Shown here one piece after another: positions 17,193 to 34,328 of a stretch of DNA of 46,866 nucleotides. This DNA comes from an uncultured Dehalococcoidales bacterium (GTDB lineage: Bacteria > Chloroflexota > Dehalococcoidia > Dehalococcoidales > DAOVUZ01). Position 1 is the stretch's first letter. Every line of letters begins with the position of its first letter. The position numbers and the translations under genes are program-made. The notes under the pieces are model-generated. The model ran no database searches, was not told where the DNA came from, and was given only the letters and a program-made list of their open reading frames with translations. The stretch lies in assembly GCA_964616615.1 (NCBI GenBank), contig CAZTRJ010000003.1:1-46866 (forward strand), given 5' to 3'.

Positions 17193-17380
17193 ACATGCGG
17201 TTCAGCATATTTGAGAGCAATATAGTTAAACCACTGCTGGCAAATTTTACCAGCTATTACCCAAGATTTACATGCTTTATTTTGCTACTGCCGCCAGTGC
17301 CTCTATGTCCTCCGTGGACACAATCATCAGATATTACACCCCGACCATAACGGTAGTGACAGCCTCGACAATAGTCGTCT

Positions 17381-18460: not shown

Positions 18461-18461
18461 A

Positions 18462-19415
18462 TTATTTTTCCTCCTCCTTTCCTAATAATTGCTCTACTAC
18501 CTTAGGGAACAGTAGGTTCAAAGGATGACCCTCAGTGGGTAAGGGTGCGCCCTCAGCATAGGCCCTGGCAGCCAGCATGCTACTAGCTGTTGCCACCGCG
18601 GGGTAGATTCGCTCCAGAGCAGTCATAGGACCAGGCAATATCCAGTCGCTTTCTATAGCAGTTATTGCCTGCATAGCAGCATCCACAGCCGGAAACTTGC
18701 TGGCACCCTCCTCACCCACAGACTTCTTCCACATATAGGTGCCGTTGGACGGAGCACAGCCCACCGGTAGCCCAAATTTCTCCTTGACCAGACGATTACC
18801 TATCAAGGAGAAGGCGGTGAGCGGTAAGCCCATCACCGCTGTGTCTACCAGGATGCTCTCGAAATTCCCTTTCTCCACCAGGGGTAGCAGCTTCTGGAGC
18901 GCCGAGACTCGTCCATTGGGTCCCATATCCTCCACATCAAACGCCTGAACGACCACATGCTTTACACCCAATTCCTTGAGTTCCGCTACCTGACCTTCAA
19001 TATCCTCATCCCAGGGAGTAATGCTATTATAAAGAAAGCGGTCCATCAGTCCTAGCTCAGCTATATAACGCGTTGCCGCAATTCTCGTCTTTGCCACCCA
19101 GATGTCGACACCGAAGGGTAAGTCGGTCACACTGGTGTAAAAATCAACCCACACCTTCATCTCATCCGTCTTGTTAGCTACCATAACCACCATACCGGGC
19201 ACGCCTGTCTCCTGAGACAGACGCTCCATCTCGTGGATACGTTCTGTAGCCTTCGCTCTGTCAAACTTACGCTCCTTTCTACTCTCAAGGAGCACATCCC
19301 CCTTCTGGAACATATTCCAAAATAAAACCGGGGGATTCTGTCCCGGTTGCCCACCCACTTTGATGCCACCAATGTTAAAAACCTTCTGTTCCAAGTTATA
19401 TTTAAGCATCACCAA
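18462..19415 (-). CDS. MtrH-family methyltransferase (methyl-corrinoid:tetrahydropterin methyltransferase-like)
   Basis: Alignable by eye to archaeal MtrH: FNIGGIKVGGQPGQNP, LYNSI, GLPVGCAPSN, GHPLN. Ends 1 nt before the next methyltransferase start. Confidence 0.75.
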   Translation of the reverse strand: MVMLKYNLEQKVFNIGGIKVGGQPGQNPPVLFWNMFQKGDVLLESRKERKFDRAKATERIHEMERLSQETGVPGMVVMVANKTDEMKVWVDFYTSVTDLPFGVDIWVAKTRIAATRYIAELGLMDRFLYNSITPWDEDIEGQVAELKELGVKHVVVQAFDVEDMGPNGRVSALQKLLPLVEKGNFESILVDTAVMGLPLTAFSLIGNRLVKEKFGLPVGCAPSNGTYMWKKSVGEEGASKFPAVDAAMQAITAIESDWILPGPMTALERIYPAVATASSMLAARAYAEGAPLPTEGHPLNLLFPKVVEQLLGKEEEK

Positions 19416-19434
19416 TATACCTCCTTTCTGGAGT

Positions 19435-21426
19435 TTATTTCTCTGCTCTCTGACTAAGAATGTCCTCTAAGTGAGGGAACTTATCCTTCATATGGGGCAA
19501 CCACATAGCCTGACCAAAAATCTTGTCAAAATCCGTCTCCACAGTCAACTCCACATATTCCACCATCCTAGCGATTTTGTCGGCTTCATCCCTCTGGTCT
19601 TTATCCATAAGGGCAACGCGGGCGCCATCACCGGCAGCATTACCCACGGAATAGACATTCTCCATATCACAACCGGGGAACATTCCCAGAACCGCCGCCG
19701 ATACCTTGTCAATAAAACTGCCGAAGGCTCCCGCCAGAACGACCTTATCAATTTTTTCAATGCCCAAGCGACGCATCATTATCTTGGCACCGGAATACAT
19801 CGCCCCCTTGCCTAGCTGGATAGCCCTCACATCAGCCTGGTTAACTGTGATGTCCTGCCCGATGGAGGTTTCTTTTGCCCAGGCAATTACATACTCGGCC
19901 TGCTCCTTCTCGTCAAGGCGTATACGAGGATTGTCTGACTCCTTGGTAAGAACACCATTCGTGGCTACCAGACCCGCCAGCCACAACTGAGGCACAACAT
20001 CAATTATTGCCGAGCCGCAGATACCGTTAGCTCCTAGATTTTCCTCCGCTTCTGTATTCCACTCCTCCCTGCCGATAACCTTGAAGTCAGCCTCTTTGGT
20101 AACCGGGTCTATCTTTATCTTCTCAATAGCCCCCGGAGCGGCACGACACCCGAACTTCATCTCGGCTCCTTCAAACGCCGGCCCAGTGGCACAGGAGGAA
20201 GAAATGAGCTTTTCCCGGTTGCCCAAAACCAGCTCGCCATTAGTGCCGATGTCGATGATGAGCTCCATACTATCCTGCTCATAAGGCTTCTCGCAGAGGA
20301 GCACGCCGACATTATCCGCCCCGACAAAGCCAGCCTCAATAGGAAGAACATGGACATAAGCCCCCGGGGCTATCTTGAGTCCCAGGTCTCTAGCCTTGTA
20401 ATTTACCGAGTGGTGTCTCGCTGCCGGGAAAGGAGCCATGCCGATATACTCGGTATCAACACCCATAAACAGGTGGTGCATACAAGTATTGCCGACTGCG
20501 GTCATGTCAATGATATCCCGCCGCTTGATGCCTGCCTTAAGGGCAGCTCTCCCACAGATTTCATTCAGACCCTTAACGATGGTATCCTGCATTGTCGACG
20601 CGCCGTCCTCGTGGGTCATATTATAGGTAATACGCGCCATCACATCTTCACCGTAAATTGTCTGCGGGTTCATCATGGATTCGGTGGCTACTACCTCGCC
20701 AGTGGACAGGTCACACAGGTAACCAACTACCGTGGTGGTGCCGATATCAAAAGCTATACCATAAGCCTTTTCCACATTTCCCGGCTCTATCAAGATAATT
20801 TCTTTATCCATCCATACCGATACGGTTACCTCCCACTTTTCGGCATATTTCCCACCAATCTTTCGCACCCTGTCCTGCATAGTCTTCAGTACCTGATAGT
20901 CAAGGTCGAGTTGCTTCGATACTCCATACTGCTCATTAAGCGCGTTACATATCCGCTCAAAGTCAGGGAGGGGGTCATAAAATGTCGCTGCCGGCAGTAC
21001 CAAATGGTATTTCTTCACCGCTGGGTTTACCTCAAGCCATGGTATCTCCCTGGCTGCCTTGCGCACAATCTGCTTGGCCAGCCGGCTCTCCTCAGGGACG
21101 AAGACCATAACATCACCGTGGATACAAGCCTGGCAAGCCAGCCGGTAACCTTCCTTCGCCTCCCTATCACTGATAAACTTCTCCTTCTCCGTTTCGTTTA
21201 TTGGACTGAGATGACTCCCGCTTGAGTCAATATGGTATTTCTCAAAGAACCCCTCTTCTATCCTGACCTTACACTTGCCGCAGGTACCCTTTTGAGAGCA
21301 AGTGCCTTCAATACCTACCCCCAGTTTCTCCGAAGCCTCCTTGAGGTTCACTCCGTCTTCGATATCGCCTCTACGACCCGATGGAGTAAAGATAACCTTG
21401 TGCATTTGGTTCCCCTGTTCCGTCAT
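19435..21426 (-). CDS. RACo-type reductive activator of corrinoid proteins ([2Fe-2S] ferredoxin + ASKHA ATPase)
   Basis: N-terminal plant-type ferredoxin Cys pattern (GTCSQKGTCGKCKV ... LACQ). Large ASKHA/DUF4445-like body (AFDIGTTTV, IDIGTNGE, CGSAI). Confidence 0.8.
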   Translation of the reverse strand: MTEQGNQMHKVIFTPSGRRGDIEDGVNLKEASEKLGVGIEGTCSQKGTCGKCKVRIEEGFFEKYHIDSSGSHLSPINETEKEKFISDREAKEGYRLACQACIHGDVMVFVPEESRLAKQIVRKAAREIPWLEVNPAVKKYHLVLPAATFYDPLPDFERICNALNEQYGVSKQLDLDYQVLKTMQDRVRKIGGKYAEKWEVTVSVWMDKEIILIEPGNVEKAYGIAFDIGTTTVVGYLCDLSTGEVVATESMMNPQTIYGEDVMARITYNMTHEDGASTMQDTIVKGLNEICGRAALKAGIKRRDIIDMTAVGNTCMHHLFMGVDTEYIGMAPFPAARHHSVNYKARDLGLKIAPGAYVHVLPIEAGFVGADNVGVLLCEKPYEQDSMELIIDIGTNGELVLGNREKLISSSCATGPAFEGAEMKFGCRAAPGAIEKIKIDPVTKEADFKVIGREEWNTEAEENLGANGICGSAIIDVVPQLWLAGLVATNGVLTKESDNPRIRLDEKEQAEYVIAWAKETSIGQDITVNQADVRAIQLGKGAMYSGAKIMMRRLGIEKIDKVVLAGAFGSFIDKVSAAVLGMFPGCDMENVYSVGNAAGDGARVALMDKDQRDEADKIARMVEYVELTVETDFDKIFGQAMWLPHMKDKFPHLEDILSQRAEK

Positions 21427-21472
21427 CGTTCCCTTCCTTTCTATTTGTATTTTTTATATTTTTGATGGCACA

Positions 21473-21793
21473 CTACTTATGCATAATATCGAATATCACC
21501 ACCACATCACGAGGTAGAGCTAGCTCAGCCTCAGCCTCGATTGCCTTAAGGACAGCCATGGGAACGGGGCAGGTAGTATGCAACTTACACCTTGAAGCAG
21601 CTTTATAAACTTCAGTGTCTACGTGCCGTTTAAGTACCTCTCCCTCGTCTATCTCTGTCAGTGATTCGCCCAGCTCAGTTACCATTTCACAGCCGCTGGT
21701 AATTACGACCTTAAAGCTCTCATCGTCAACTCTGTCAACCTCTACAGTGCTGATAAAACCACAGATACCCGACTTAACGATTACCCTGGTCAT
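21473..21793 (-). CDS. small conserved-looking Cys-containing protein, unknown function
   Basis: 106-aa ORF with an RBS (AGAGGAA), placed just upstream of the activator gene. Four Cys (GICGF, SGCEM, SRCKLHTTCP). No family recognised. Confidence 0.4.
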   Translation of the reverse strand: MTRVIVKSGICGFISTVEVDRVDDESFKVVITSGCEMVTELGESLTEIDEGEVLKRHVDTEVYKAASRCKLHTTCPVPMAVLKAIEAEAELALPRDVVVIFDIMHK

Positions 21794-21815
21794 CCATATT
21801 CCTCTATTCTAACCC

Positions 21816-22126
21816 CTACTGATGGACGGCAAAACCGCCTAAACCTCTGCCTACCCTGTCCATCTGCCGAACATCATACAAACTCCCCCTCGGTAGCATT
21901 TCGCCGCCTGGTTCTAGTGTAAAACCCGGTTTGTGCTTCTTCCCAATCTCAATGGCTTTTCAGCAACTTTCCTAGACATCAGCAGCCGTGCCTACCTGAA
22001 AAACCGCTGGCTCAACGTTCCCGTAGAGAATGTCATTGGGAAAAAGCTTGCTAAAACTCTCAAAAGGTGTTGGACAGTTAAGAGCCCGATAACCACCGAT
22101 GTACCCGGCGCCAAAATTAACTATGC
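21816..22126 (-). pseudogene. decayed C-terminal relic of a URO-D/MtaA-family methyltransferase
   Basis: The - strand translation reads WRIVNFGAGYIGGYRALNCPTPFESFSKLFPNDILYGNVEPAVFQVGTAADV*ESC*KAIEIGKKHKPGFTLEPGGEMLPRGSLYDVRQM. This parallels the C-terminus of the intact paralogs (ILGNVESKVVLTHGTAEEVRAVARKALEAG..MLEPSCG..MPLNNIKVLV). It has in-frame TAG and TGA codons, and the N-terminal ~240 aa are missing. Confidence 0.4.
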
Positions 22127-22231
22127 GCCACTACCCCTTTCCTATTAATAGAAGCGTCAACTACTTTCAGCAGGTAGCGAGCTACTTTATACGCCATTCC
22201 CTCTTGTCTTATTTCCCCTCTCTTTTGTGGG

Positions 22232-22918
22232 CTATTTCTTAGCTGCTGCCTCTTCTTCCTTCAGCATTGCAATCAGCTTCATCGCTTCATCAACCGCCGT
22301 CCCAGCACTTTCTGCATATCCATCAGCATCATATTTTTTAGCTACATCTGGGTTTATCGGAGCACCGCCTATCATAATACGGCACTTGGGATTTTTCTCC
22401 CTTATCTTCTTTATCACCACCGGCATGCCCAGCATGCTAGTCGTCATCATAGCTGAGAGAGCCACAATCTCAGAATTAGTCTTAAGCTGCTCCTCGACAA
22501 ACTTTTCCAGTGGCACATCCCTTCCCAGGTCATAGACGCTCCAGCCAGCAACATCAAACATCATCTTGATCAGGTTCTTGCCGATGTCGTGAACATCGCC
22601 CTCAACCACACCAATGACTACTGTCCCCGCCACTTTTGATTTTCTTCCTGAGGCAATGATGGCCGGCTTTAAGATGTCCAAGCCAGCATACAGCGCATCG
22701 GCACACATCAGGAGTTCCGGGACAAAGTACTCCTTTTTGTTGTACAGGTCGCCTACCGCTACCATCCCATTAGCCAGACCGTCCATTGTGGCGACGAAGG
22801 GGTCTACGCCTTCGTCTATAGCAGCGTGGCTAAGCTCCACCACCTTGTCCTCATCAAAAGCCACCACCGCGTCATGAAGCCCTTTTAGTATTTCCTTAGT
22901 TCTCTCCTCTGAAGCCAA
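22232..22918 (-). CDS. corrinoid (B12-binding) protein of MtaC/MtbC/MttC type
   Basis: B12-binding DxHxxG motif (GDVHDIGKN), SAMMTTSM and GGAP motifs, N-terminal helical cap. TTG start behind AGGAGG. Stop codon is TAG. Confidence 0.85.
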   Translation of the reverse strand: MASEERTKEILKGLHDAVVAFDEDKVVELSHAAIDEGVDPFVATMDGLANGMVAVGDLYNKKEYFVPELLMCADALYAGLDILKPAIIASGRKSKVAGTVVIGVVEGDVHDIGKNLIKMMFDVAGWSVYDLGRDVPLEKFVEEQLKTNSEIVALSAMMTTSMLGMPVVIKKIREKNPKCRIMIGGAPINPDVAKKYDADGYAESAGTAVDEAMKLIAMLKEEEAAAKK

Positions 22919-23207: not shown

Positions 23208-24233
23208 TCACTCCTTAAGTTTAAAGTTTCTAGCCTCTTCGACAAGGACTTTTATGTTATTGAGCGGCATTAATGCTTCAAGACCACAGCTAGGCTCGAG
23301 CATAGTAACACCAGCCTCAAGCGCTTTCCTAGCTACGGCTCTCACCTCTTCAGCGGTACCATGGGTTAGCACCACTTTGGATTCAACATTACCCAAGATT
23401 TTAACGTCACCTACGATTGGCTTTATCCGGGCGATGTCAACACTTTGCTTAACGCTTATAACGTCAAAACCAATGTCAGCGATGTCTGGTATAAATGGTT
23501 CGACATCCCCACACAGATGTAGGATTCTTATTCCACCCAGATTGTCGGCGATTTTTTTCAGGGCGGGCTTAATATATTCTCTAAAAGTCTTGAGACCCAT
23601 TATGTCAGGCGTTCCCAGAGGCTCGCCAAGTGAGATTACATCAGAGCCAGCACGATATTGTGCCTTGCCATACTCTATGATGGCTTCCACGGCAAAATCA
23701 ATGAACTTTTTGGCACTTTCCGGATTCTTTACTGCCCACATCAAGAATCTCGTTGGCTCGGCTAACTCACCAGCTAGTGAATAAGGACCAAAGACAAAAC
23801 TTGTTACCGGGAGAAAATCTCCCACCTTTCTCCTCGCCAAACGAATGGCTTCCATTACGGCTGGAATTCTACCTCTTTTCAGAAAATCATCTGGCATCTT
23901 CAGGTCCTCGGCTTTATCAAAGGCATGATGTAGCATTGCTGGTTTAAGTTCATGACGGTCATAGAACTGAATTTCACAGCCCAAAACCTCAGGCAATATA
24001 CTGAATTCGTACCCAATGTTCACATTTCCCAGTCCAGTTATCTCCTGGCTAGCAATAGCCAGATTTGCCATCTTTTCCGGGTCTTGAAAGGCTTCAGGCC
24101 AGTATATTCCAGCCGCTTTTTGAATCTCTACGGTAACACTTCCTCCACAAGCCCCGATGCAGGTTGCCGGTACCTCATCAACTTTCCCTCCCAATAAAGC
24201 AGTCAACACCCTTCGTTTTGGAGTGAATTTCAA
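23208..24233 (-). CDS. URO-D/MtaA-CmuA family corrinoid methyltransferase
   Basis: RRVLTALLGGKVDEVP, ILHLCGD, MLEPSCGLEALMPLNNIKVLV. Confidence 0.8.
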   Translation of the reverse strand: MKFTPKRRVLTALLGGKVDEVPATCIGACGGSVTVEIQKAAGIYWPEAFQDPEKMANLAIASQEITGLGNVNIGYEFSILPEVLGCEIQFYDRHELKPAMLHHAFDKAEDLKMPDDFLKRGRIPAVMEAIRLARRKVGDFLPVTSFVFGPYSLAGELAEPTRFLMWAVKNPESAKKFIDFAVEAIIEYGKAQYRAGSDVISLGEPLGTPDIMGLKTFREYIKPALKKIADNLGGIRILHLCGDVEPFIPDIADIGFDVISVKQSVDIARIKPIVGDVKILGNVESKVVLTHGTAEEVRAVARKALEAGVTMLEPSCGLEALMPLNNIKVLVEEARNFKLKE

Positions 24234-24316: not shown

Positions 24317-25360
24317 CTACTTTTCCTCAAATTTCACACCATATCTCGGGGCAACTTGTTGAATGGTACCAATTATCATACTATATAGAAGGTCCTCGGG
24401 TAACTTGCTGGCTATGGCGTCAACCACGAGCCTGCCACCACTCAGAGTATCCATATCACCAGTGAAATCGACTTCTTGGTCCAAGCTCACTAAACTGGCT
24501 TTAAGGAAGAAGCTCTCATCGCTGATAATCGCCTTTATATGGTTAATATCTCCTTCCATGCCGAGCACCTTTTCGGCTATCCCCACTAACAGGTAACGCA
24601 GGAAGTCCTTCAGCTCAGATTGGCTAAGAGTGCGCTCGACCTCAATGGCGTACCGCTCCCCCCGCTCCCCTATCTCAGTCACCGACCTAGCAAAAGTCTT
24701 AAACACGGTCATGGTAGCAACGGGAACAACTTCATGCCTTCCCCGAAGCACTATACCTGATAATTCATCTAAACCCGTCCCCGTTTTCGCCGACATCATA
24801 AGTAATCTTGCCCTGGGATTAATGTGCTGAATGATGGCTTGTATCGCTGGGAGCTGGTCCGGCGCCACCAGGTCCATCTTGTTTATCACCACTACCTCCG
24901 CATCCTCTATTTGACGGGACTCAATAAAGGGTAACTTCTCAGTATCTCCCTGATAGGATAAGAGTCGCAGCGCATCAACCAGTATTATTACCGGCGCCAA
25001 GTCCACTGTCTCACCAAACTTTCTCTGGAACGCCTCATACAGTTTTGAGGGCAGGAAATAAGCTACTGGCTCAATGAACATCACATCTGGGATAAACCTC
25101 TCGGTTATGGTATCAATGATGTAACCAAGATGGTCGAGGTAAAAGCAAATGCATCCTCCCGTGATTTCCCCAGCCTCGAACCCAAGACGCTTGGTCATCT
25201 CCCCATCGACATTGATTGCCCCTTTGTCATTAGATACTACCGCCACCCGCTTCCCCTCCCCACTCAGTTTTTTCCCCAGTTCCATAATGGCAGTAGTCTT
25301 GCCGACGGCGTAAAAGCCACCTATGCTGGCAACCCTTACTTTCTCCATTGTTATGCTCAT
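24317..25360 (-). CDS. G3E-family P-loop GTPase (CobW/MeaB/HypB-like) with C-terminal domain
   Basis: G1 GGFYAVGKTT, CobW-like GGCICF (degenerate CxCC), switch IEPVA, NKMDL (NKxD), and a ~130-aa C-terminal extension. Confidence 0.65.
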   Translation of the reverse strand: MSITMEKVRVASIGGFYAVGKTTAIMELGKKLSGEGKRVAVVSNDKGAINVDGEMTKRLGFEAGEITGGCICFYLDHLGYIIDTITERFIPDVMFIEPVAYFLPSKLYEAFQRKFGETVDLAPVIILVDALRLLSYQGDTEKLPFIESRQIEDAEVVVINKMDLVAPDQLPAIQAIIQHINPRARLLMMSAKTGTGLDELSGIVLRGRHEVVPVATMTVFKTFARSVTEIGERGERYAIEVERTLSQSELKDFLRYLLVGIAEKVLGMEGDINHIKAIISDESFFLKASLVSLDQEVDFTGDMDTLSGGRLVVDAIASKLPEDLLYSMIIGTIQQVAPRYGVKFEEK

Positions 25361-25417
25361 AATTAAAAACTATCTGGGGCTACTCTAACTTTTGTCAACA
25401 GGCAAATAACTTCCCGT

Positions 25418-26008
25418 CTACAATTTAACCCCAATGAGAATAGTCCCCTGACCCCGCACATCAACCCCGTTAAAATAGCCATTTTTCAAGAATAAATCAC
25501 AAGGTGTGGTGGGACTAGCATAAATAATGGAACGACATGAAAAATCGCTCCCCTCCAGGATACACCATTCGGCGAGGAGGCTCGGGGTCTCAAAACAGCA
25601 GACATCCTTGGCGATATCCTGAGGAAAAGATATCCTGTCCTTATAAATAACAAAATTATCCAGCATAAACCAGACATTTTCCTTTTTTTTCATCCTGGCA
25701 ATGGCTTCCTCATCCTCAATTTCTTCACCCACCACCTCCTCTCCTTTCTTTAAAATCAGGGAAGGAGAGCCCCACTCAAACTCTCTGTCAGTCAGGCCAA
25801 CATAGACCAAATCACAAGTTAGCACCTCCCTTATCCCGGTGTTGGCGACCCTACCCAGACCCATCAGGGAGTGCTTTTCGGCCTCATCCTCGATGCTCAA
25901 CACCTGCTGACTATCTTTTTCAGAAAAAGGGCAGATGTCTACGAGCCCCTTCACCTTTTTCAAGGCCGCTATCATCACCGCATCTGCCTTCGTCCGGTCT
26001 ATGGTCAT
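25418..26008 (-). CDS. hypothetical Cys-rich protein
   Basis: 196-aa ORF whose ATG overlaps the stop of the RamA-like gene (ATGA). Acidic linker and several Cys (DICPF, DVCCF, EWC, FSC, TPC). No family recognised. Confidence 0.4.
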   Translation of the reverse strand: MTIDRTKADAVMIAALKKVKGLVDICPFSEKDSQQVLSIEDEAEKHSLMGLGRVANTGIREVLTCDLVYVGLTDREFEWGSPSLILKKGEEVVGEEIEDEEAIARMKKKENVWFMLDNFVIYKDRISFPQDIAKDVCCFETPSLLAEWCILEGSDFSCRSIIYASPTTPCDLFLKNGYFNGVDVRGQGTILIGVKL

Positions 26009-27678
26009 TTCTCCTCTCCCGCTGAAGAGCTACTTTGCCGACCTTTAACTCCTGAAGTAATTAGTTTATTCAGGTTGAACACCTTTTCGCTACATATCCT
26101 TTCACATCTCATACAGGCTACCCCATTACACAGGGCTAGGTTAATAACGATGGCAGGCTTCTCCCCCTGTTCATCCAGGGAAAGAGCTCCCTCGGGGCAT
26201 TCCTCGACGCACTTCTGGCAGCTGATGCACCCCTCAAAAGCCATCTCTTTTAGTTCCCCGATGTCGGGAATAATCTTTAGCCCCATAACCCCCAAATCTG
26301 GTATGTCCCTCTCCACCGTCTTAATAACCTCTGGAAGCTCACCGACCTCGTGGAGGGGAGGGTAGCCATATCTTTCCAGAAATTGTTGATACATCTTCAA
26401 GGGCATACCCTGAGTCCATAAGGAAAGTTCAAGGACATAGACCTTCTCAAAAACCTCGGACTCGGCAAACATGCAGTGGTGTTGCCGCATCTCATTGGCT
26501 ATTTTTTGCATGTTCCACAGTTCATCCTCGCTTTTGACCATATCCCGGGACATAGCCAGGGAGGTGTTCCCTACCTGGAAGACCCTCTTTACAGTTGACG
26601 GTACCATGCCTATTTGCTGGGCCTTGAGGGCATCGACATAGGTTCCAGAGGCGCCGGACATATAAGCCGTTCCTATTTGGGTCATATCTATACCCGCCGC
26701 CTGACAAAGGGTGACATGCCCCGCCCTGACCGCGCCAATAGCCTTACCCGCCTCCTCGACATCGTGTTCGGTAAACTTGATACCGCTGGCAAGTTTGATT
26801 TTACTATCGGATGTTTTGATTTTGGGAAGTTTAATCAGACCGGTGTTTATTCCCTGGCTGAGTAAGGCAATCACTCCGGTACCAGTAATGCCTACCGCCT
26901 TTAAACTCCCTTTATCCAGGACTTTGCCCGAATCAGGGTCCACTAGGTCTCCTTTTTGGGCATACATATCCTGGTCAAGGACAAAACACTGAAGTCCGCC
27001 ATCCTGGGAATTGACATCAGAGATGGCTCCGGGGAGGGCTAATAGGCCATCCTCAATCTGTTGCCCTTCCAGGGCAGGCCCAGCAGCCGTAGAGCCAGTG
27101 TAAACGACTCCCCCTACTATGAGGGCCATTTCATTGTTAGTGCCGTAATCGGTGACAATGGCGATTTCTTCCCTTTCCAGCACACCTGCCTGAATCATCA
27201 TAGCCAGGGCGTCGGCTCCAATCTCGTGGCGAACCGCCGGTGGCACCAACACATCTGCTTCAGTCGGCAGGTCAAGACCTCTGACATCCCGTGCCTTAAC
27301 TATTTGGGCATCTCTTTTCGGGGGGACTACCCCCAGACTTTCCAGCTTGCTTTTCCCAGCATAGGCCAGGTCTCTTATCTCCATTTCCCTGAAAATAGAG
27401 AGCTGAATAGGATTGCCGCAGACAGCCAATCGCACCACATCATCTTTTTCGATTCTAAGATTGTCAATAACCCGATTGACAGCATTAACAGCCACATCAT
27501 GGGCGTTTGCTACCCCAACCTCCAGGGCAAAATGCAGGTGGTCCATTACATTAGCCCCTGGCATGGGGTGGCGGGTAGTAATAGCGGTAGAGATTATTTT
27601 GTTCCCATTGTCCAGGTCAATGGCTTGCCCCCTGAAGCCACTGGTTCCCAAATCAAAGGCAATACCTAGTTTCCCCAT
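26005..27678 (-). CDS. ramA: RamA-type reductive activase (ASKHA ATPase + C-terminal 2x[4Fe-4S] ferredoxin domain)
   Basis: N-terminal ASKHA motifs (GIAFDLGTSG, TDYGTNNE). C-terminal CISCQKCVEECP and CNGVACMRCERIC clusters. This is the domain order described for Methanosarcina RamA. Confidence 0.7.
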   Translation of the reverse strand: MGKLGIAFDLGTSGFRGQAIDLDNGNKIISTAITTRHPMPGANVMDHLHFALEVGVANAHDVAVNAVNRVIDNLRIEKDDVVRLAVCGNPIQLSIFREMEIRDLAYAGKSKLESLGVVPPKRDAQIVKARDVRGLDLPTEADVLVPPAVRHEIGADALAMMIQAGVLEREEIAIVTDYGTNNEMALIVGGVVYTGSTAAGPALEGQQIEDGLLALPGAISDVNSQDGGLQCFVLDQDMYAQKGDLVDPDSGKVLDKGSLKAVGITGTGVIALLSQGINTGLIKLPKIKTSDSKIKLASGIKFTEHDVEEAGKAIGAVRAGHVTLCQAAGIDMTQIGTAYMSGASGTYVDALKAQQIGMVPSTVKRVFQVGNTSLAMSRDMVKSEDELWNMQKIANEMRQHHCMFAESEVFEKVYVLELSLWTQGMPLKMYQQFLERYGYPPLHEVGELPEVIKTVERDIPDLGVMGLKIIPDIGELKEMAFEGCISCQKCVEECPEGALSLDEQGEKPAIVINLALCNGVACMRCERICSEKVFNLNKLITSGVKGRQSSSSAGEEK

Positions 27679-27752: not shown

Positions 27753-28565
27753 TCAGGCTAATGCCTGAACTGCCATGGCAGCGACACCCAGTTGCAGGGG
27801 GTCATGGATAAGTTGAACCATATCTGACTCAGGTTCGTCAATGCCCAGAGGTACGCCCGGCGCTGCCAGGAACAGCCGACATTTCAGCTCCCCGACCCTG
27901 ATAATGTTAGAAGAGGTGGTGGCATCCAGCACCAGGTTGGTCTCACTTAAAATCTCACCCACACTACCCGCCCCTCTTATGCCTGCCCTCCCCGCCAGAA
28001 AATCAGACTGCCGCCTCTGGTCCTTATCATAAACGATGAGCCGGGCCCCGTGCGAGTGAAGCCAGCCCACTGCCGCCTGCCCTACCGGCCCTAATCCCAG
28101 GACAGCCACCGGGCGTCCAGCGACACCTCCGGCAGCAGCAGCCAGGGCGGCAGCATAAACCTCACCCGTAGCCAGTGTATTATCTACCAGTCGGCGGGAA
28201 CGCAAGTTCAATGCCAGAAAGGCGGCATCGTCGGCAAGTAGTATAATTTCTGAACCACCGACCACAGCCTCGCCCAATCCAGCCACATCCTGCCCTCTGG
28301 TAACTTTACAAGGCAGCCCCAGAAAACAGCCTATGTCAGCTACCTGTTCCGAAAAACCAGGAATGATGCCCTGACCGGTAGTGATAGGAATAACCGCCAC
28401 CCAGGACAGAGCTGCCACCCCGGTTCTGTATTGTTCCAGTGTCATATCTGTTGTCTCAAGAGCCAGTTCCAGCAGTCCCATACCAGTTGCAGCCTGCAGC
28501 CTCTGCTCGTATGCTTTCAAATCGATAGGTCCCTGCTTCAGGTCATCTGTGGTCAACCGCGTCAT
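27753..28565 (-). CDS. pylD: pyrrolysine biosynthesis dehydrogenase PylD
   Basis: By-eye alignment with Methanosarcina PylD: LTTDDL, IPITTGQGIIPGFSEQV, GSEIILLADDAAFLALNL, VLGLGPVG Rossmann loop. Overlaps the pylC end by 23 nt. Confidence 0.85.
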   Translation of the reverse strand: MTRLTTDDLKQGPIDLKAYEQRLQAATGMGLLELALETTDMTLEQYRTGVAALSWVAVIPITTGQGIIPGFSEQVADIGCFLGLPCKVTRGQDVAGLGEAVVGGSEIILLADDAAFLALNLRSRRLVDNTLATGEVYAAALAAAAGGVAGRPVAVLGLGPVGQAAVGWLHSHGARLIVYDKDQRRQSDFLAGRAGIRGAGSVGEILSETNLVLDATTSSNIIRVGELKCRLFLAAPGVPLGIDEPESDMVQLIHDPLQLGVAAMAVQALA

Positions 28566-29781
28566 GATTCCCTCCGAGTTGCGGCACTTGGTAAGTAGGG
28601 TCGATAAAATCTTTCAGGTTCAATGCCGAGGCTATGCGCTCCAGGCACCTTTGCCGCTTTTCAGCAACTGATGCCCAGTCAACTCCAGTAAAAATGAGGG
28701 TGCTCTTGAAAGCCGACTTCCCTTCCTGATAGTTAGTCAGGGCTACGGTGGCTCCGAAAAATTCACCATTGGGCCACACCCGGAGTCCGCTCCAGGGTAG
28801 CAAACGCGTCTCGCCAATAGCCTCCAGACAGGAGTTACCTACTGACCAGTGTTCCAGCCAGGCACACCCGGGCCCAGCTACCGCCGGGCGGAGGGGCTGA
28901 CCACATCCATGAGCCTTTACCCATTCCTCCAGCAGGTTGATACCGGAGGCATGATAAACAGCCATGGGCGTCTGACTGGGAAAGCGAGCATCAATCTCCA
29001 GAACAACAACCTCCCCCCTTCGGGGGTCAGCCATGACCTCAACATCCATAAGCCCATTAAGCTTCAGGTGGCGGGCAATGTCAAGGCAGATGGTTTCAAA
29101 CCTCTGATTGAGACTGTGGGGCAATCTCGACGGAGCATAAACCCGCTTGCAATCCAGTTTAGCATCAAATTCCAATTCGGTGACCAGATAGCCGACGCCT
29201 GCCCCTTGCCGGGCAATTACCTCCAAAGAAAGGGAAGGACCGCTATGATAGGCTTCCACCACCATCTCTCCATAACGGGTAGTGAGTTCCGGCAAAACAG
29301 CGTCCAAGGCGGTCCGACTCAACACTACCTGAAGACCATGACTCCCACTGGACGTGGACGGTTTGACTATAACCGGGAAGCGGCAATGAGGCCACTTTTC
29401 CGGGACAGGGATTCCGTGGTCGGCAAAAAAGCGGTTACTGCGTATTTTGGATGATGATACGGCATAGGCTGCAGTATCATGCAAAAATGTCACCCCGGCT
29501 TCCTCACAGGTCTCCGCCAAAAAATCCAGGGTTCCCTTCTCTTCAGTTGCCGGTAGAATCGCATCCATATCCGGCAGCAGACGGCGAAACCGGTGGGGCT
29601 CTTCCTGGATGTCAAAAACGCAGGCTTGATGAGCCAGTGCCAGAGCTGGCGCCTCCGGGTCACGGTCGATAACCGTAACCTGATATCCAGCTTCCCGTGC
29701 CAGGTAGGCGGCTTCAATCCCCTGTAGACGCCCCCCGACAAGTCCAAGGCGAAAGGAATAAGCATGTGGTTTAGGGTTCAT
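28543..29781 (-). CDS. pylC: 3-methylornithine--L-lysine ligase PylC (ATP-grasp)
   Basis: Pre-ATP-grasp N-terminus LGLVGGRLQGIEAAYLAREAGYQVTVID. ATP-grasp body (VIVKPSTSSGSHG, LEIDARFPSQTP). The start is set at ATG 29781 (MNPKPH) rather than the upstream alternative start at 29796. Confidence 0.8.
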   Translation of the reverse strand: MNPKPHAYSFRLGLVGGRLQGIEAAYLAREAGYQVTVIDRDPEAPALALAHQACVFDIQEEPHRFRRLLPDMDAILPATEEKGTLDFLAETCEEAGVTFLHDTAAYAVSSSKIRSNRFFADHGIPVPEKWPHCRFPVIVKPSTSSGSHGLQVVLSRTALDAVLPELTTRYGEMVVEAYHSGPSLSLEVIARQGAGVGYLVTELEFDAKLDCKRVYAPSRLPHSLNQRFETICLDIARHLKLNGLMDVEVMADPRRGEVVVLEIDARFPSQTPMAVYHASGINLLEEWVKAHGCGQPLRPAVAGPGCAWLEHWSVGNSCLEAIGETRLLPWSGLRVWPNGEFFGATVALTNYQEGKSAFKSTLIFTGVDWASVAEKRQRCLERIASALNLKDFIDPTYQVPQLGGNHDAVDHR

Positions 29782-29801
29782 AGCCACCAGTCTCACATAA
29801 T

Positions 29802-29838
29802 GGGGTGAGCTTCGCTAAGGAGTCACTAAGCTCACCCC
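29802..29838 (-). promoter_or_regulatory. leader hairpin upstream of pylC
   Basis: Perfect 11-bp stem GGGGTGAGCTT / AAGCTCACCCC with a 15-nt loop. It lies between the promoter and the pylC start, with no trailing U-run. Confidence 0.5.
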
Positions 29839-29849
29839 AAGCAGTGAAA

Positions 29850-29878
29850 ATTATAAGCCCAGCCTAAATTCTTGTCAA
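29850..29878 (-). promoter_or_regulatory. consensus sigma70 promoter for pylC-pylD
   Basis: On the - strand: TTGACA (29878-29873), a 17-nt spacer, then TATAAT (29855-29850). Both hexamers are perfect. Confidence 0.65.
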
Positions 29879-30003
29879 CAGCTTGTACTCTTCTTGTTCC
29901 AGAAACTTGAGTGGTGTCAGGTAGTTAAGGGCTTGGTGAGAACAGGAGGACAGCAGTAACTAGCTTTAATAAGGCAAGAGGTCATGGTTTTGGCACAGCC
30001 TGT

Positions 30004-30834
30004 TTAGATGTTGAGCCGTGCCCCATCCAGATAGATTAGGCTTCTACCGACACGGTGTATATTCCCATTGCCGGTAACTAACATAGCCACCCGCTCCAGC
30101 CCTACACCCAGTCCGGCCCAGGATTCGCTGATGTTCCAGTTGCCATCCAGAGGATGGGGGCCGGTAGCGCCCGAAGCCACCTCCACCCCATCACAGACCA
30201 CATCCAGGGTAAAGCCATAAACCTGAGAGGACTCTTTCACCAAATCATAGGAAAGACCAAATGTGCCCATGACCAGGTCTGCTATCTCAACCAACCGTTC
30301 TTGTGGCTCACCTTGACAACCCAATTCCACCAGGTTCAGCATAGTGAACTCTTCCATGTGGTGGGAGCCTTTGGACTCCTTGCGCCAGCAGGAGCCTATC
30401 TCAAAAAGGCAGATTGGGCGCGGCCACAGACGCTGCAAGTGTCCCAACAGAAAATAGAGGTTGGGCGCCAACATAGGGCGAAGGCAACGCTCTTCATCAA
30501 TCCAGAAAATCTGCTTCCACAGGGGGTCATCCTCAAAAATGTTCATTTTTTTGAGTAATCCCCGGGCTAAAAAGGCGGGGGTAGTCACCTCCACGAACCC
30601 GGCCTGCACCAAGGTTTCGGCTATCTGCGCCGCTATTCTAACCGGGGCAGGACGACGCAGAGTAGTGCGGAGTCTGGTCAAGATTTCCAGGTTTCTTTCC
30701 GACAACTCTTTGGCCAGATGATTGAAGCAGGCGTTACGCTCCGATTCGGAGGCAAAGCTCAGTGCCAGTGCCTCAGGTTCCGCATCCAGTTCAACGAGCC
30801 GCTGTTTTTGAGTACTTGAAAAGGTAACCTTCAT
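30004..30834 (-). CDS. pylS: pyrrolysyl-tRNA synthetase, catalytic subunit (PylSc)
   Basis: By-eye alignment with Desulfitobacterium PylSc and the Methanosarcina PylRS C-domain: CLRPMLAPNLY, ICLFEIGSCWRKES, EEFTMLN, VYGFTLDV, ASGATGPHPLD, GLGVGLERV, SLIYLDGARLNI. The start is set at ATG 30834 behind AAGGAAGG. Confidence 0.9.
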   Translation of the reverse strand: MKVTFSSTQKQRLVELDAEPEALALSFASESERNACFNHLAKELSERNLEILTRLRTTLRRPAPVRIAAQIAETLVQAGFVEVTTPAFLARGLLKKMNIFEDDPLWKQIFWIDEERCLRPMLAPNLYFLLGHLQRLWPRPICLFEIGSCWRKESKGSHHMEEFTMLNLVELGCQGEPQERLVEIADLVMGTFGLSYDLVKESSQVYGFTLDVVCDGVEVASGATGPHPLDGNWNISESWAGLGVGLERVAMLVTGNGNIHRVGRSLIYLDGARLNI

Positions 30835-31174
30835 GTCCGCCTTCCTTGACAAAGGAGGTCCGAGAGTATTTTTCCAGCTTCCACGCCGGCACCCGACAAC
30901 TCTGACAGGGCTTTTCGTACCATTTATTCCTGAGCCACCGTGCCAGGCGACTATTACTGGAACACTTGACACAGACCCTCTGGTTGCAGTGGGTGATTAT
31001 GGTCATCACATTACCCCGGCACTTTACGGAACGAACACCATGGAGGATTCCCTTATGTGACGGCAAAAGCTTAATCCGATTTATGAGGTAATATAAGTCT
31101 TCGCCCTTCCTGAAGACCTTCTTCTTTTTCCGCTTTCCGCCAACCTCAGCGGTAACGGGACTTTGTGGTTCCAT
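30791..31174 (-). CDS. pylSn: pyrrolysyl-tRNA synthetase N-terminal tRNA-binding subunit (PylSn)
   Basis: Matches the PylRS N-domain by eye: LINRIKLLPSHKGILHGV...THCNQRVCVKCSSNSRLARWLRNKWYEKPCQSCRV against M. mazei LISATGLWMSRTGTIHKI...[34 protein letters not shown]. The H/C/C/C Zn ligands are conserved. Its 3' end overlaps pylSc by 44 nt in another frame. Confidence 0.8.
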   Translation of the reverse strand: MEPQSPVTAEVGGKRKKKKVFRKGEDLYYLINRIKLLPSHKGILHGVRSVKCRGNVMTIITHCNQRVCVKCSSNSRLARWLRNKWYEKPCQSCRVPAWKLEKYSRTSFVKEGGHEGYLFKYSKTAAR

Positions 31175-31206
31175 AACACTTCCCCCGGGCTATAGACGGC
31201 AAACAC

Positions 31207-31278
31207 TGGCGGAGAGTTCGGGAGTTTAACCCGACTACATGGATTTAGAGTCCACGCGGTCCTGCCGACCAACCCTCC
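31207..31278 (-). tRNA. pylT: tRNA-Pyl (anticodon CUA), CCA encoded
   Basis: The - strand reads GGAGGGT-T-GGTC-GGCAG-GACC-G-CGTGGA-CTCTAAA-TCCATG-TAG-TCGGG-TTAAACT-CCCGA-ACTCTCC-G-CCA. Features: 7-bp acceptor stem, one linker nt, 5-nt D loop, 6-bp anticodon stem, CUA anticodon, 3-nt variable loop, T loop lacking the TPsiC consensus, and G discriminator. Close to the M. barkeri tRNA-Pyl core GGACTCTAAATCC. Confidence 0.92.
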
Positions 31279-31400
31279 ATAAAGGCTGAGAACACTTGCT
31301 TTCTGGGACACTTAGCCCATCGTGTCCCCCATCTCTAATATCCAACCGAAGAGCTATTACATTGGCTCCAGTAGTATGCAAGTCACCAGCCAGCTTGTTG

Positions 31401-32090
31401 TTATTTCGGCTTTTGAATGGCTCTCAGCGCTCGGCGCAACATATCCAGCCAGGGTTCTACCGTTTCGGCTCTAAACCGTTCGTAGTCCCTTGCCAACGAT
31501 GCATCTGCCACCGTCAGATAGACCCTAGCCACTTCCGGGCTCTCAAATTCCCCGCTGAGCTTATCCCCTAAAACTTTTTTTAAAGAAGGGTAAAGCTCCT
31601 GGTACGGTTCTAAAAATCCCATAATTTCGAAAACACTGCCTTCCATTTCCTCCAGACACGGAAATTCCTCCAGACACGGAAAGGGTTTACTCAAAATCCT
31701 CTCTAAACAGCGACAACGCTCAGACAATGAATCCAGCCCACCCTGCAAGTAAGCACTGACTGCCTCCGAATCAACACTGATATAATCCATAACAGCCAGT
31801 TGGCAGTCGTCAATGGCATAAATGCTGCAACCTTCGTCGCTAACTTTTAATTCCAGCTCATTTTTCACGAAACTGTAGAGAGCCTCTCCCGTGAGCCTGG
31901 AAGACATCTTCCCAATTATCCGTACCACCTCCCCCATGGATTCCAGTGGAAGTTCAGCAGGAGCCTTCAAGCAGTATAGTTCGCCGAAAAAATGGCACCG
32001 CACGCTTAAAGGCCGGGCTAAGCTCCCAAACGTACCAGGGTCCCAAACCTTTAACAGCAGCATGTCACCCGGCGAGCTTTCGCTGGTCAT
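31401..32090 (-). CDS. hypothetical protein, third gene of the AAA+/VWA module
   Basis: 229-aa ORF whose start overlaps the VWA gene stop by 4 nt. No recognisable motif. Contains the internal PCLEEF/PCLEEM duplication. Confidence 0.45.
   Translation of the reverse strand: MTSESSPGDMLLLKVWDPGTFGSLARPLSVRCHFFGELYCLKAPAELPLESMGEVVRIIGKMSSRLTGEALYSFVKNELELKVSDEGCSIYAIDDCQLAVMDYISVDSEAVSAYLQGGLDSLSERCRCLERILSKPFPCLEEFPCLEEMEGSVFEIMGFLEPYQELYPSLKKVLGDKLSGEFESPEVARVYLTVADASLARDYERFRAETVEPWLDMLRRALRAIQKPK
31647..31682. repeat. 18-nt perfect tandem duplication inside the hypothetical CDS
   Basis: TTCCTCCAGACACGGAAA x2 (31647-31664 and 31665-31682), encoding FPCLEE twice. Confidence 0.9.
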
Positions 32091-33325
32091 TGTTCATACC
32101 CCTGTAACCGGATGACCCTTCCAAATGGCGGCTCACGGTAAGAATTCATAACCCAGATGACATCAAAGGGTTGATTCGAGTCCGGATATTTCCCATCTCC
32201 GTCCGTCAGGTAAACCAGCACTTCAGGCGGGTCATCATCTATCTTGCTAAAAACAGGACGGAAGTCGGTACCACCACTACCACTGAGACACTTCAGGAAA
32301 GACTCAAAATCTGAATCATGCACCGCCATCATATCAGCATGAACGGCGGCATCGCAAGCCAAAAGCCTGGCCCGGAACGAACTGAAGGACTGGAGGATGT
32401 TTCTGATTTCCGCCAAAAACTCGTCAAGCTGCTCATCACTCACGCTTCCCGAGGTGTCCACCGCCACCGCTATTTTTAACAGCTCAGACTTAGAAGATGG
32501 ATAGTATATCCCATATTGAAGCAATCGCCTATCGGGTTTCATCCAATCATAATCATCACTAGAGCGCTGCTTAATATACTGATGCAAAAGCTGACGCCAA
32601 TTCAAACGAGGGTAAGCAAGTTCCCCAACTACCCGGGCAATGCCCAAGGGGAACATACCTTGATGCTTCGCCACCGCCGCCGCTTCAATCGCCCTCTGTT
32701 TCCACAACTCCTCATCTTTACTAGCTTCAGCAGACTTATCCAATGCCTCTTTACTAGCTTCAGCAGACTTATCCAATGCCTCTTTACTAGCTTCAGTGGG
32801 CTTATCCAATGTCTCCCTTGGCCCACTATCCTGTCGGTTGATGTCATGCCCGCCTTCTTCAGTGTTGTCCCACACACCGTGGTCATCAATAGTATCTCCT
32901 TCACCACCAGGCAGGCCTTCTTCATTCAATAGCTCATTGTAAATTTGCTCCGCGCTTTTGTTTTCAAACTCTTTTTCATACAATATCCCTTCAGGCAAAC
33001 GGAAGTGGTCTTTCAAAATAGCGTTAATCACATAGTCCGCCGCCATGTTCCAGAGCCTTTTTTCTCGAGAACCACGCCTCCAGATGTGCCCCAGCGCCAG
33101 ATGCATCACCTCGTGGGCAAAGACCCCCTCAATCTCCTCATCTTCCAGTCTATCTATCTTTTCCGGGAAATAGTACAGACAAATACCGTCGGTCCCGGTT
33201 GGATATTTGCTCTCATGCTCCCTCAGCTCGAGATAGTTGGCGAGATAGCCAAAAAAGGGGTTCTTCAGCAGTAGCTGAACCCTGGCTCTAATTACCCTCT
33301 TCCTGACGCTCGTAGAATCACTCAT
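32087..33325 (-). CDS. HExxH metallopeptidase-like + VWA-like domain protein (DUF2201-type partner of MoxR ATPases)
   Basis: N-terminal FAHEVMHLALGH (HExxH). Central low-complexity repeat linker. C-terminal VWA/MIDAS-like AVDTSGSVS. Overlaps the AAA+ gene stop by 4 nt. Confidence 0.65.
   Translation of the reverse strand: MSDSTSVRKRVIRARVQLLLKNPFFGYLANYLELREHESKYPTGTDGICLYYFPEKIDRLEDEEIEGVFAHEVMHLALGHIWRRGSREKRLWNMAADYVINAILKDHFRLPEGILYEKEFENKSAEQIYNELLNEEGLPGGEGDTIDDHGVWDNTEEGGHDINRQDSGPRETLDKPTEASKEALDKSAEASKEALDKSAEASKDEELWKQRAIEAAAVAKHQGMFPLGIARVVGELAYPRLNWRQLLHQYIKQRSSDDYDWMKPDRRLLQYGIYYPSSKSELLKIAVAVDTSGSVSDEQLDEFLAEIRNILQSFSSFRARLLACDAAVHADMMAVHDSDFESFLKCLSGSGGTDFRPVFSKIDDDPPEVLVYLTDGDGKYPDSNQPFDVIWVMNSYREPPFGRVIRLQGYEQ
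32715..32813. repeat. 33-nt tandem repeat x3 within the VWA protein linker
   Basis: Units at 32715-32747, 32748-32780 and 32781-32813 (TCTTTACTAGCTTCAGCAGACTTATCCAATGCC). The first two are identical and the third has a few changes. Encodes (EASKEALDKSA)n. Confidence 0.9.
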
Positions 33326-34326
33326 AGAATCAAATCTCGGTGCTTTTCGGCAAAATAAACAAATTCCTGCGTTTCTCTAACCGGTAACTCCGCTCTAATA
33401 GCATCCCTTACCAGCAACACGGAGAATTCCTCAGGTAAAAGGCAGGCGTATTCTATAACTCTGGCAGTTTTCCCCATGTCCTCGCGGGCATAACAAACCA
33501 GGGCCGACACCAGAGAGTAGAGCAGGTCCGGACTCTGTGGAACCAGGTCCTCTCCGTTGAGAATCATCTTTGCATCCGGAAGCCGCTCTGTTGCCCGCAG
33601 GTAAGCCAGGAATTCAGTCGCCGCACCCACGCCGATAGCACCGGCTACATCCGTTTTGCTCTCAAGCCCTATAGCCAAAATCTCGGAGACCCTCTCCCAA
33701 CTTCGAGGTGTGGGAAAAGCGTGTTCCATCTTCGCCGGGTCGAAGCGAAACAGCAGGTCAGGTTTGAAGCTTAAAAAACCTATTACCCTGGAGTCAATCT
33801 GATTGGCATACGCCCATTTTTTCCAGTCATCAAGATTGGTTTCAACTTCCCAATGGATGAACCGATTGGCTAACGGGGCTGGCATGGGCACGGTATAGGC
33901 TCTGTCGGTGGACTTATTTCCCGCCGCCACCACCATCCACCCATCCGGCAACACATACTCCCCGACTCTGCGGTCCAAAATAAGCTGATACGCAGCCGCC
34001 TGTACTGAATGAGGCGCCAGGTTCAGCTCGTCCAGGAACAAAATGCCCTTTCCGCTTTGCGGCAGGAAACAGGGTGGCGACCAACTGACCGTTCCCCCAT
34101 CAAACCTGGGCAGCCCCCTAAGGTCAACGGGGTCAAGCAAGGTCAACCGCAAATCCTCAAAATCTATTCCCTCTTCCTCACAGATTTGCTTGACAATGTC
34201 AGACTTCCCTATCCCAGTGGAGCCCCATAAAAAGACGGGCGGTGAGTTTATTCTTGCCCCCAGGCAAAAACTCACCATATGCCTGAGCACCTCCTTAACC
34301 TCGTTAATGCTTTTGGTAGCGAGCAT
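33322..34326 (-). CDS. MoxR/AAA_5-type AAA+ ATPase
   Basis: Walker A GSTGIGKS, Walker B ILFLDELN, sensor region VVAAGN, LANRF motif. The start lies 2 nt after the pylB stop. Confidence 0.8.
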   Translation of the reverse strand: MLATKSINEVKEVLRHMVSFCLGARINSPPVFLWGSTGIGKSDIVKQICEEEGIDFEDLRLTLLDPVDLRGLPRFDGGTVSWSPPCFLPQSGKGILFLDELNLAPHSVQAAAYQLILDRRVGEYVLPDGWMVVAAGNKSTDRAYTVPMPAPLANRFIHWEVETNLDDWKKWAYANQIDSRVIGFLSFKPDLLFRFDPAKMEHAFPTPRSWERVSEILAIGLESKTDVAGAIGVGAATEFLAYLRATERLPDAKMILNGEDLVPQSPDLLYSLVSALVCYAREDMGKTARVIEYACLLPEEFSVLLVRDAIRAELPVRETQEFVYFAEKHRDLIL

Positions 34327-34328
34327 CT

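Follow-up and report, generated by a model that had tools for sequence, protein, structure and literature searches.

The stretch of DNA considered here, called the window throughout, is a 46,866-nucleotide (nt) piece of contig CAZTRJ010000003.1 from an uncultured Dehalococcoidales bacterium. On its minus strand lies a run of five genes, and it is these that concern us. In order of transcription, they are pylD (27753-28565; 197 bits to the PylD model TIGR03911, cut-off 150); ramA (26005-27678), encoding a 557-amino-acid (aa) RamA-type ATP-dependent reductive activase of corrinoid proteins; an open reading frame (ORF) of 196 aa belonging to an uncurated family (25418-26008); a gene for a 347-aa G3E GTPase of divergent COG0523 type (24317-25360); and a gene for a URO-D methyltransferase resembling MtaA and MtbA (23208-24233), called MtaA1 below. 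Gaps of 74, 57, and 83 nt separate pylD from ramA, the 196-aa gene from the GTPase gene, and the GTPase gene from the URO-D gene, respectively. Between ramA and the 196-aa gene there is no gap at all; the stop codon of the first and the start codon of the second share a 4-nt ATGA overlap that can be read directly in the sequence (...gagaaATGAccat), coupling the two genes translationally. A first-pass annotation had recorded this layout, along with the motifs GGFYAVGKTT, GGCICF, and NKMDL in the GTPase translation, and all of it matches the sequence. It had also proposed that the activase, the 196-aa protein, and the GTPase make up one unit for the maturation of corrinoid proteins. We find instead that the window holds two conserved pairs side by side, ramA with the 196-aa gene and the GTPase gene with the URO-D gene.

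Is the 557-aa protein a genuine RamA? It scores 788.8 bits against the RamA model TIGR04270 (cut-off 500), covering model positions 2 to 532 of 534, and its domains stand in the right order: a RACo middle domain (PF17651, residues 4-165, 2.9e-13), an ASKHA domain (PF14574, residues 171-428, 4.9e-62), and a C-terminal ferredoxin domain (PF12838, residues 484-531, 6.4e-7). Two [4Fe-4S] motifs, CISCQKCVEECP and CNGVACMRCERIC, can be read in the translation. Searched with Pfam for the N-terminal 2Fe-2S domain of RACo-type activases, the protein gave no Fer2 or RACo_linker match. Over its full length it is 51% identical to a homolog in an Archaeoglobales locus (L071; loci carry such numbers throughout). 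Judged by its sequence, then, the protein is a bona fide RamA, just as first annotated. Members of the RamA family are established as ATP-driven enzymes that take methylamine corrinoid proteins from Co(II) to Co(I) (Ferguson et al. 2009). We infer the same activity here, with MtmC as the likely substrate.

The 196-aa protein belongs to a sizable family. An indexed search returned 144 homologs at an E value of ≤1e-3, and an exhaustive profile search found 169 representative clusters at 50% identity. The GTPase has 43 matches in the indexed search, and with so many homologs, both ORFs are real rather than chance reading frames. No Pfam or NCBIfam model matches the 196-aa protein, and when 19 diverse family members were compared with Pfam, isolated weak matches of single members were all that appeared, with nothing consistent among them. 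A profile search of PDB sequences returned nothing at an E value of ≤10. The AF2 model is confident (predicted local distance difference test [pLDDT], 85.5; predicted template modeling score [pTM], 0.80), but a Foldseek comparison of this model with the PDB produced no fold match, the best having an E value of 0.72 and a TM score below 0.2. Mean column identity among close homologs is 66%. A literature search of incomplete coverage turned up no description of the family, or of any accessory protein of RamA or RACo, which is absence of evidence only; the family appears to be undescribed. Its gene in the window stops at a TAG codon (25418-25420, minus strand) in an organism that decodes pyrrolysine (Pyl), and more in-frame TAG codons follow 11 and 16 codons on.

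The first-pass annotation had called the ORF Cys-rich. This holds for the window copy, which has seven Cys residues, but not as a trait of the family or a clue to its function, since the count runs from zero to eight among members. C137 is the sole invariant Cys among the close homologs, and once distant members are added to the alignment, no Cys is conserved. Nor does that wider alignment contain any conserved His or Cys able to ligate cobalt. The idea of a Cys-cluster protein was therefore ruled out, there being no family-wide Cys and some members with none, and we predict from the alignments that the 196-aa protein is not a Cys-ligated metal protein.

Where else is the gene found, and what stands beside it? 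A genome scan gave 55 loci in Dehalococcoidia and Desulfobacterota, among them one in the isolate Desulfospira joergensenii DSM 10085, and their neighborhoods were read by tblastn with the window's proteins. An intact RamA gene adjoins the 196-aa gene in 45 of the 55, immediately upstream of it in 39 and immediately downstream in 6 (Desulfomonilaceae), and the tblastn matches to the two genes lie a median of 45 nt apart. The other 10 loci include one in which RamA is interrupted by N's (L029) and one in which it has decayed (L010), and in a few bacterial loci, no RamA stands next to the 196-aa gene. What looked like ferredoxin-only genes ahead of the 196-aa gene in L010 and L029 proved to be the decayed RamA pseudogene and the N-interrupted RamA, respectively, and were rejected as a separate gene type. 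The L010 case (9400-10594; Dehalococcoidia metagenome-assembled genome [MAG] A509) is a second 196-aa copy behind a RamA remnant with several stop codons, so that here the partner gene outlived its activase. In D. joergensenii, which is listed as a methanol-utilizing sulfate reducer (PMC8048578), the order is sigma-54 activator, MtaA, MtaC, CobW (with a CobW_C domain), sigma-54 activator, MtaB, RamA, and 196-aa homolog.

Distant relatives of the 196-aa protein occur in Archaea, namely in Archaeoglobales, Methanosuratincola, and Methanosarcina. The Archaeoglobales MAG of L071 has DUF6951, MtaB, URO-D, MtaC, a cobW-type GTPase, RamA, and the 196-aa homolog, followed by CbiMNQO and cbi genes, and the coding regions of RamA and the 196-aa homolog overlap. 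In Methanosuratincola (L069/L070), a 2Fe-2S RACo-type gene and the 196-aa homolog overlap at the 3' end of the former. These two genes end a block (1-8546) of mcrD, two McrC-family genes, DUF8179, DUF2102, DUF2113, and a double ABC ATPase, a layout that hints at co-regulation of the reductive activators for methyl-coenzyme M reductase (MCR) and for corrinoid proteins. Other 196-aa homologs adjoin genes for URO-D, MtaB, non-Pyl MtmB, or RACo. In one such locus, L096, genes for a corrinoid protein, RACo, URO-D, and a member of the 196-aa family accompany an uninterrupted, apparently non-Pyl MtmB-family gene of 462 aa (1509-2897). Synteny with an intact RamA (45 of 55 loci), the ATGA overlap of the window, and the archaeal overlaps with RamA or RACo genes together make RamA and the 196-aa protein a conserved pair. 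What characterizes the family is partnership with RamA/RACo-type activases within corrinoid methyltransferase neighborhoods.

The GTPase has close homologs (57 to 91% identity) in Dehalococcoidia and in archaeal MAGs such as those of MSBL1 and Methylarchaceae, and a more distant one (39%) in Methanonatronarchaeum. It had been annotated as CobW/MeaB-like. The G3E assignment stands, with 86.9 bits to PF02492 (cobW/HypB/UreG) over residues 11 to 186 and with GGFYAVGKTT, EP, and NKMD invariant in the clade. Likeness to MeaB does not: the scores are 25.6 bits against a cut-off of 329 for NF006958 and 23 against 240.75 for TIGR00750, and the Pfam MeaB match is confined to residues 10 to 48. The HypB model TIGR00073 gives 38 bits (cut-off 121.2). 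A PDB sequence search returned weak matches to YjiA (1.7e-4), a MeaB-like protein (3.5e-4), and HypB (8.6e-4), while Foldseek, run on the AF2 model (pLDDT, 89.3), placed full-length YjiA first (E value, 3.6e-13), ahead of HypB (2e-10), UreG (2e-8), and MeaB (1e-7). By HHalign, the protein matches the CobW_C-bearing GTPases of methanol methyltransferase (Mta) clusters at 99.6% probability, with the alignment reaching the C-terminal domain. PF07683 itself does not match, but HHalign enters the CobW_C region, the Foldseek alignment spans about 355 columns on full-length YjiA, and the C-terminal domain, with its conserved HxK, may be CobW_C-like. No hydrogenase or urease gene is adjacent, and there is no adenosylcobalamin (AdoCbl)-dependent mutase among the annotated ORFs of the window or the called genes of related loci. 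On sequence and predicted fold, the GTPase is best placed as a divergent COG0523 relative and not a relative of MeaB; grouping as it does with COG0523, it lends no support to the MeaB-like role in B12 loading that had been suggested for it.

The second pair came to light in loci holding this GTPase type, which two protein look-ups and one scan of metagenomes had supplied. A gene for an MtaA1-like URO-D protein directly follows the GTPase gene in every bacterial locus with readable, intact downstream DNA (15 loci); the loci recorded with URO-D in this position are L061-67, L072-76, L078-80, L083, and L084. What lies upstream, on the other hand, changes. It is RamA and the 196-aa gene in the window and in L065-67, L076, L077, L080, L085, and L090, but a block of deacetylase, methyltransferase, corrinoid protein, and MTTB genes in L061-64, L072, L074, L075, L078, L081, and L083. 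The URO-D protein of the window was annotated correctly, scoring 328.1 bits to PRK06252 (cut-off 244) and 296.7 to TIGR01463 (cut-off 235.4). It contains the motifs ILHLCGD and EPSCG (HxC...C), which we take to be the zinc-ligand positions of MtaA, and all four MtaA-like proteins of the window carry HxC...C. MtaA and MtaB are Zn enzymes (PMC2770081). Two 330-aa proteins, P0137 and P0139, that join GTPase residues 1 to 243 to the last ~90 residues of URO-D were considered as designed G3E-URO-D fusions and rejected as internal deletions or chimeras. Their junction occurs on two contigs, and L089 has a similar one, G3E(1-67)/MtaA1(273-341). The GTPase gene of L087 is fragmented and probably a pseudogene.

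Do the two pairs belong together? A G3E gene is present in 35 of the 55 196-aa loci, and all 35 also have MtaB; in the 17 loci without MtaB, there is none. RamA and the 196-aa gene occur with neither G3E nor MtaB in eight loci. In the Mta clusters, the G3E gene usually stands directly downstream of MtaC (22 cases), and the different COG0523 type found in these clusters tracks MtaB, not RamA. Close relatives share the exact trio of the window, RamA-196aa-G3E (L065-67, L076, and L080, plus L077, L085, and L090 on short contigs), so its synteny is not confined to this genome. The three families are contiguous in other orders as G3E-RamA-196aa in the Archaeoglobales locus L071 and as G3E-196aa-RamA in Desulfomonilaceae. 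Because the GTPase gene keeps MtaA1 while its upstream neighbor is swapped, and because G3E is absent where MtaB is absent, we take the conserved units to be RamA with the 196-aa protein and the GTPase with URO-D. The second methyltransferase cluster of the window, described below, also follows the GTPase gene in L061/L062/L078/L079, where RamA and the 196-aa gene are not upstream. In L086 (2162-2359) and L089 (2492-2575), the 196-aa gene is separated from the GTPase gene by a 3' remnant of the deacetylase gene (Hist_deacetyl), which we read as the rearrangement junction that joined the pyl/RamA block to the GTPase-headed cluster. In L007, a related Dehalococcoidales locus, the downstream cluster occurs without the GTPase and MtaA1 genes and is divergent from RamA-196aa. 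In the metagenome assembly of L061, RamA and the 196-aa gene are on a separate contig (L003) beside MtaA-MtaB-MtaC-CobW, which does not imply a common organism. Within the 57-nt gap of the window, a promoter-like site, TTGACA-18-GATAGT (25369-25398, minus strand; 10 of 12 matches in a consensus scan), is weakly consistent with the GTPase gene heading its own transcription unit.

How might these proteins work? RamA would use ATP and low-potential electrons to reduce the inactive Co(II) form of a corrinoid protein to Co(I). The 196-aa protein, presumably made in step with RamA by way of the overlapping stop and start codons, may physically partner RamA/RACo-type activases or serve as their adaptor, for instance by docking the electron donor, docking the corrinoid protein, or gating the use of ATP. 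The genes for the GTPase and the MtaA-like URO-D protein open a second corrinoid methyltransferase operon, with a RACo activase of its own, and the most likely role of the GTPase is to chaperone, in a GTP-dependent way, the metal site (probably Zn) of the URO-D methyltransferase or its assembly. A metal chaperone, probably for Zn, is a likelier role than that of a MeaB-like B12 loader. Given the COG0523 ancestry, the two invariant Cys residues in switch I, and the fixed Zn methyltransferase neighbor, chaperoning of Zn or assembly is the most economical reading. For the reading as a whole, that is, a RamA-196aa pair adjoining a GTPase-URO-D pair in which the GTPase is likely a metal chaperone, we estimate a probability of roughly 0.55.

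Several observations weigh against this reading, each bearing on one of its parts, and the first concerns the division into two pairs. The three gene orders in three lineages would fit a single functional unit equally well. RamA, the 196-aa protein, and the GTPase might then form one unit for the maturation or repair of corrinoid proteins, with the GTPase and the 196-aa protein loading or exchanging cobamide in the manner of MeaB. The recurrence of the three families together in corrinoid methyltransferase neighborhoods, which is a part of the original proposal that has held up, speaks for this, as do the trio of L071 that leads directly into CbiMNQO and cbi genes, the preference of the Mta-cluster G3E for the position right after MtaC, and the cobamide salvage genes and CobO inside the window. 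It has to contend, however, with a GTPase that is COG0523-like and whose MeaB signal is confined to the P-loop, with the retention of MtaA1 when the upstream neighbor is exchanged, with the absence of G3E from all 17 196-aa loci lacking MtaB, and with a 196-aa family that conserves no His or Cys for cobalt ligation. On balance, we consider a single unit unlikely.

A second set of observations touches the metal chaperone role. CxCC is stated to be present in all members of COG0523 (PMC2770081), and the more distant relatives of the GTPase (P0146-P0159 and L071) keep it. In the clade of the window GTPase, the switch-I motif has become CxC[F/Y] (GGCICF in the window), each of the 12 members having F or Y at the third position. 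The GTPase also lacks the His-rich linker of its Mta-cluster counterparts. Such linkers are typical of metallochaperones. In the Mta-cluster CobW-type GTPases (L013, L057, L060, and others), they lie between the GTPase and CobW_C domains and read, for example, HHHHEDKKHPHHHH or HGHDHG. With the altered motif and no His-rich linker, the GTPase may not bind metal canonically. In addition, its closest archaeal homologs (61 to 66% identity; MSBL1 and another archaeon) have no methyltransferase genes nearby. Has the GTPase, then, ceased to be a metal chaperone? With CxCC and the His-rich region lost, it could instead be a nucleotide-dependent assembly or regulatory factor for a complex of MtaA1 and its corrinoid protein, or have a role shared with the archaeal homologs that lie outside methyltransferase clusters; the invariance of CxC[F/Y] in the clade and the other clade-specific invariant residues, YFLPS, ERGE, and NHIK, would suit such a change. 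Yet the whole clade keeps two of the three Cys residues (C70 and C72), the two-domain YjiA-like architecture is kept, and the gene tightly adjoins that of a Zn enzyme. We think this alternative improbable, but the CxC[F/Y] motif keeps the chaperone reading uncertain.

The remaining objections concern the activase partner. Methanosarcina RamA is reportedly active in vitro without any partner, and the Methanosarcina homologs of the 196-aa protein are solitary, with no activase gene adjacent. These solitary homologs, and the few bacterial loci without an adjacent RamA, are what could be said for the 196-aa ORF being a mere passenger with no tie to RamA, whether a lineage-specific hypothetical gene or an annotation artifact, an idea that is very improbable and largely refuted by the synteny, which ties the family to RamA across two bacterial phyla and to RamA or RACo genes in two lineages of Archaea, in many cases with coding regions that overlap, as well as by the conservation of the family and its confident predicted fold. 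A physical partner of the activase is argued from the tight translational coupling and the synteny that crosses domains. Oxidized cobalt must be reductively reactivated in all corrinoid methyltransferase systems, and to our knowledge, reactivation is currently described as the job of one protein, be it RamA, RACo, or an activating enzyme. A bolder form of the partnership, which we offer tentatively as a possibility short of even odds, is that the family is a new-fold component of the ATP-dependent reductive activation of corrinoid proteins, common to Bacteria (Dehalococcoidia and Desulfobacterota) and Archaea (Archaeoglobi, Methanomethylicia, and Methanosarcina), that would bind ASKHA activases of the RamA and RACo types and govern how electrons enter, which partner is chosen, or how nucleotide is turned over.

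Upstream of ramA, a Pyl/monomethylamine block (27753-37768, minus strand) ends with pylD. In transcription order, it comprises mtmC (37130-37768), mtmB (35664-37046), pylB (34329-35399), a three-gene insertion (31401-34326), tRNA-Pyl with anticodon CTA (31207-31278; found by ARAGORN), pylS (30004-30972), pylC (28543-29796), and pylD. The same order is found in L065-67 and L080. mtmB has a single in-frame TAG at codon 202, with Pfam MtmB matching the two halves at model positions 2 to 195 and 216 to 449, and this amber codon is the expected pyrrolysine codon. The insertion between pylB and tRNA-Pyl encodes an AAA_5 (MoxR-like) ATPase, a DUF2201 VWA protein with a metallopeptidase-like DUF2201_N domain, and a 229-aa ORF without a family; it is also present in L065-67, and its last gene is present in L080. 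The pylS ORF has 322 aa from a GTG start, and starting instead at the internal Met residue 47 would give ~276 aa, the same length as the protein called in L065 (276 aa). No separate pylSn-like ORF was noticed in the window, in which no systematic search for one was made.

Downstream of the URO-D gene, the remainder of the second methyltransferase cluster spans 13697-22918 on the minus strand. Its genes, identified with Pfam and NCBIfam, encode a corrinoid protein (22232-22918), DUF6951 (21473-21793), a 2Fe-2S RACo/AcsV-like activase (19435-21426), an MtrH-like methyltransferase (18462-19415), three further MtaA-like URO-D proteins (17381-18460, 16125-17192, and 13697-14701), DUF2284 (15432-16061), and a CobO-like protein (14861-15442; CobO_BtuR, assigned through its L065 ortholog). 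The plus-strand half of the window is given over to cobamide salvage and remodeling genes behind two cobalamin riboswitches, at 1146-1291 (48.9 bits) and 7245-7438 (114.3 bits), which precede genes resembling those for cobamide uptake or lower ligands. A riboswitch scan of the window found no cobalamin riboswitch on the minus-strand methyltransferase clusters.

Corrinoid methyltransferase systems drive the turnover of methylamines, methanol, and methoxy compounds in anoxic sediments and in methanogenesis. If the 196-aa protein is indeed a conserved partner of the activases, one without a known fold, then both the reconstitution and the understanding of corrinoid reactivation would change, and its gene would be a clean marker for corrinoid activation systems in metagenomes. 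This activase-associated family is the main interest of the locus. Of secondary interest is the CxC[F/Y] clade of COG0523 paired with a URO-D methyltransferase. It sharpens a question dating from 2009, namely, what COG0523 proteins do in methyltransferase clusters, by tying a clade with an altered metal motif to one URO-D methyltransferase in a defined pair.

How does the locus compare with systems already known? Like RamA of Methanosarcina and its paralog RamM, the activase of the window combines a RACo middle domain, an ASKHA ATPase domain, and a C-terminal pair of [4Fe-4S] clusters, and it has pyl and mtmBC genes nearby; it differs in being bacterial and in having a translationally coupled 196-aa partner gene, of which we found no description for the Methanosarcina enzymes in the literature searched. 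The second activase (19435-21426) belongs with RACo/AcsV, the 2Fe-2S activators of CoFeSP and of the corrinoid proteins of O-demethylases. In Methanosuratincola, it is a RACo-type gene that is followed by a 196-aa homolog, and the literature searched contained no accessory subunit of RACo. As for the GTPase, Escherichia coli YjiA (PDB 1NIJ and 4IXM), a Zn-binding COG0523 protein, is its top fold match over both domains and its top PDB sequence match, with the Cys motif aligned in switch I, yet the two share just 16 to 17% identity, the third Cys is missing, and the genomic context is another. With MeaB/MMAA, which delivers AdoCbl to methylmalonyl-CoA mutase, it has in common the G3E superfamily and a link to B12-dependent chemistry; the similarity, however, lies in the P-loop only, as a fold match, MeaB trails YjiA by about six orders of magnitude in E value, and no mutase partner is present. 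MeaB itself has neither the Cys motif nor a CobW_C domain.

The closest precedent is the COG0523 "subfamily 13" of G3E GTPases, which co-localizes with mtaA, mtaB, mtaC, and ramM (Haas et al. 2009, PMC2770081). The link between G3E GTPases and such clusters is thus not new, contrary to what the first-pass annotation implied; beyond that paper, our literature search, incomplete in coverage, returned no characterized G3E protein of corrinoid methyltransferase systems. The window GTPase resembles subfamily 13 in being a G3E protein, probably with a CobW_C-like domain, encoded in corrinoid methyltransferase clusters near Zn methyltransferases and RamA-type activases. It is set apart from the COG0523 type of the Mta clusters by forming a separate clade at ~28% identity, by having CxC[F/Y] in place of CxCC, and by the lack of a His-rich linker, and its partner is a URO-D gene, not MtaC or MtaB.

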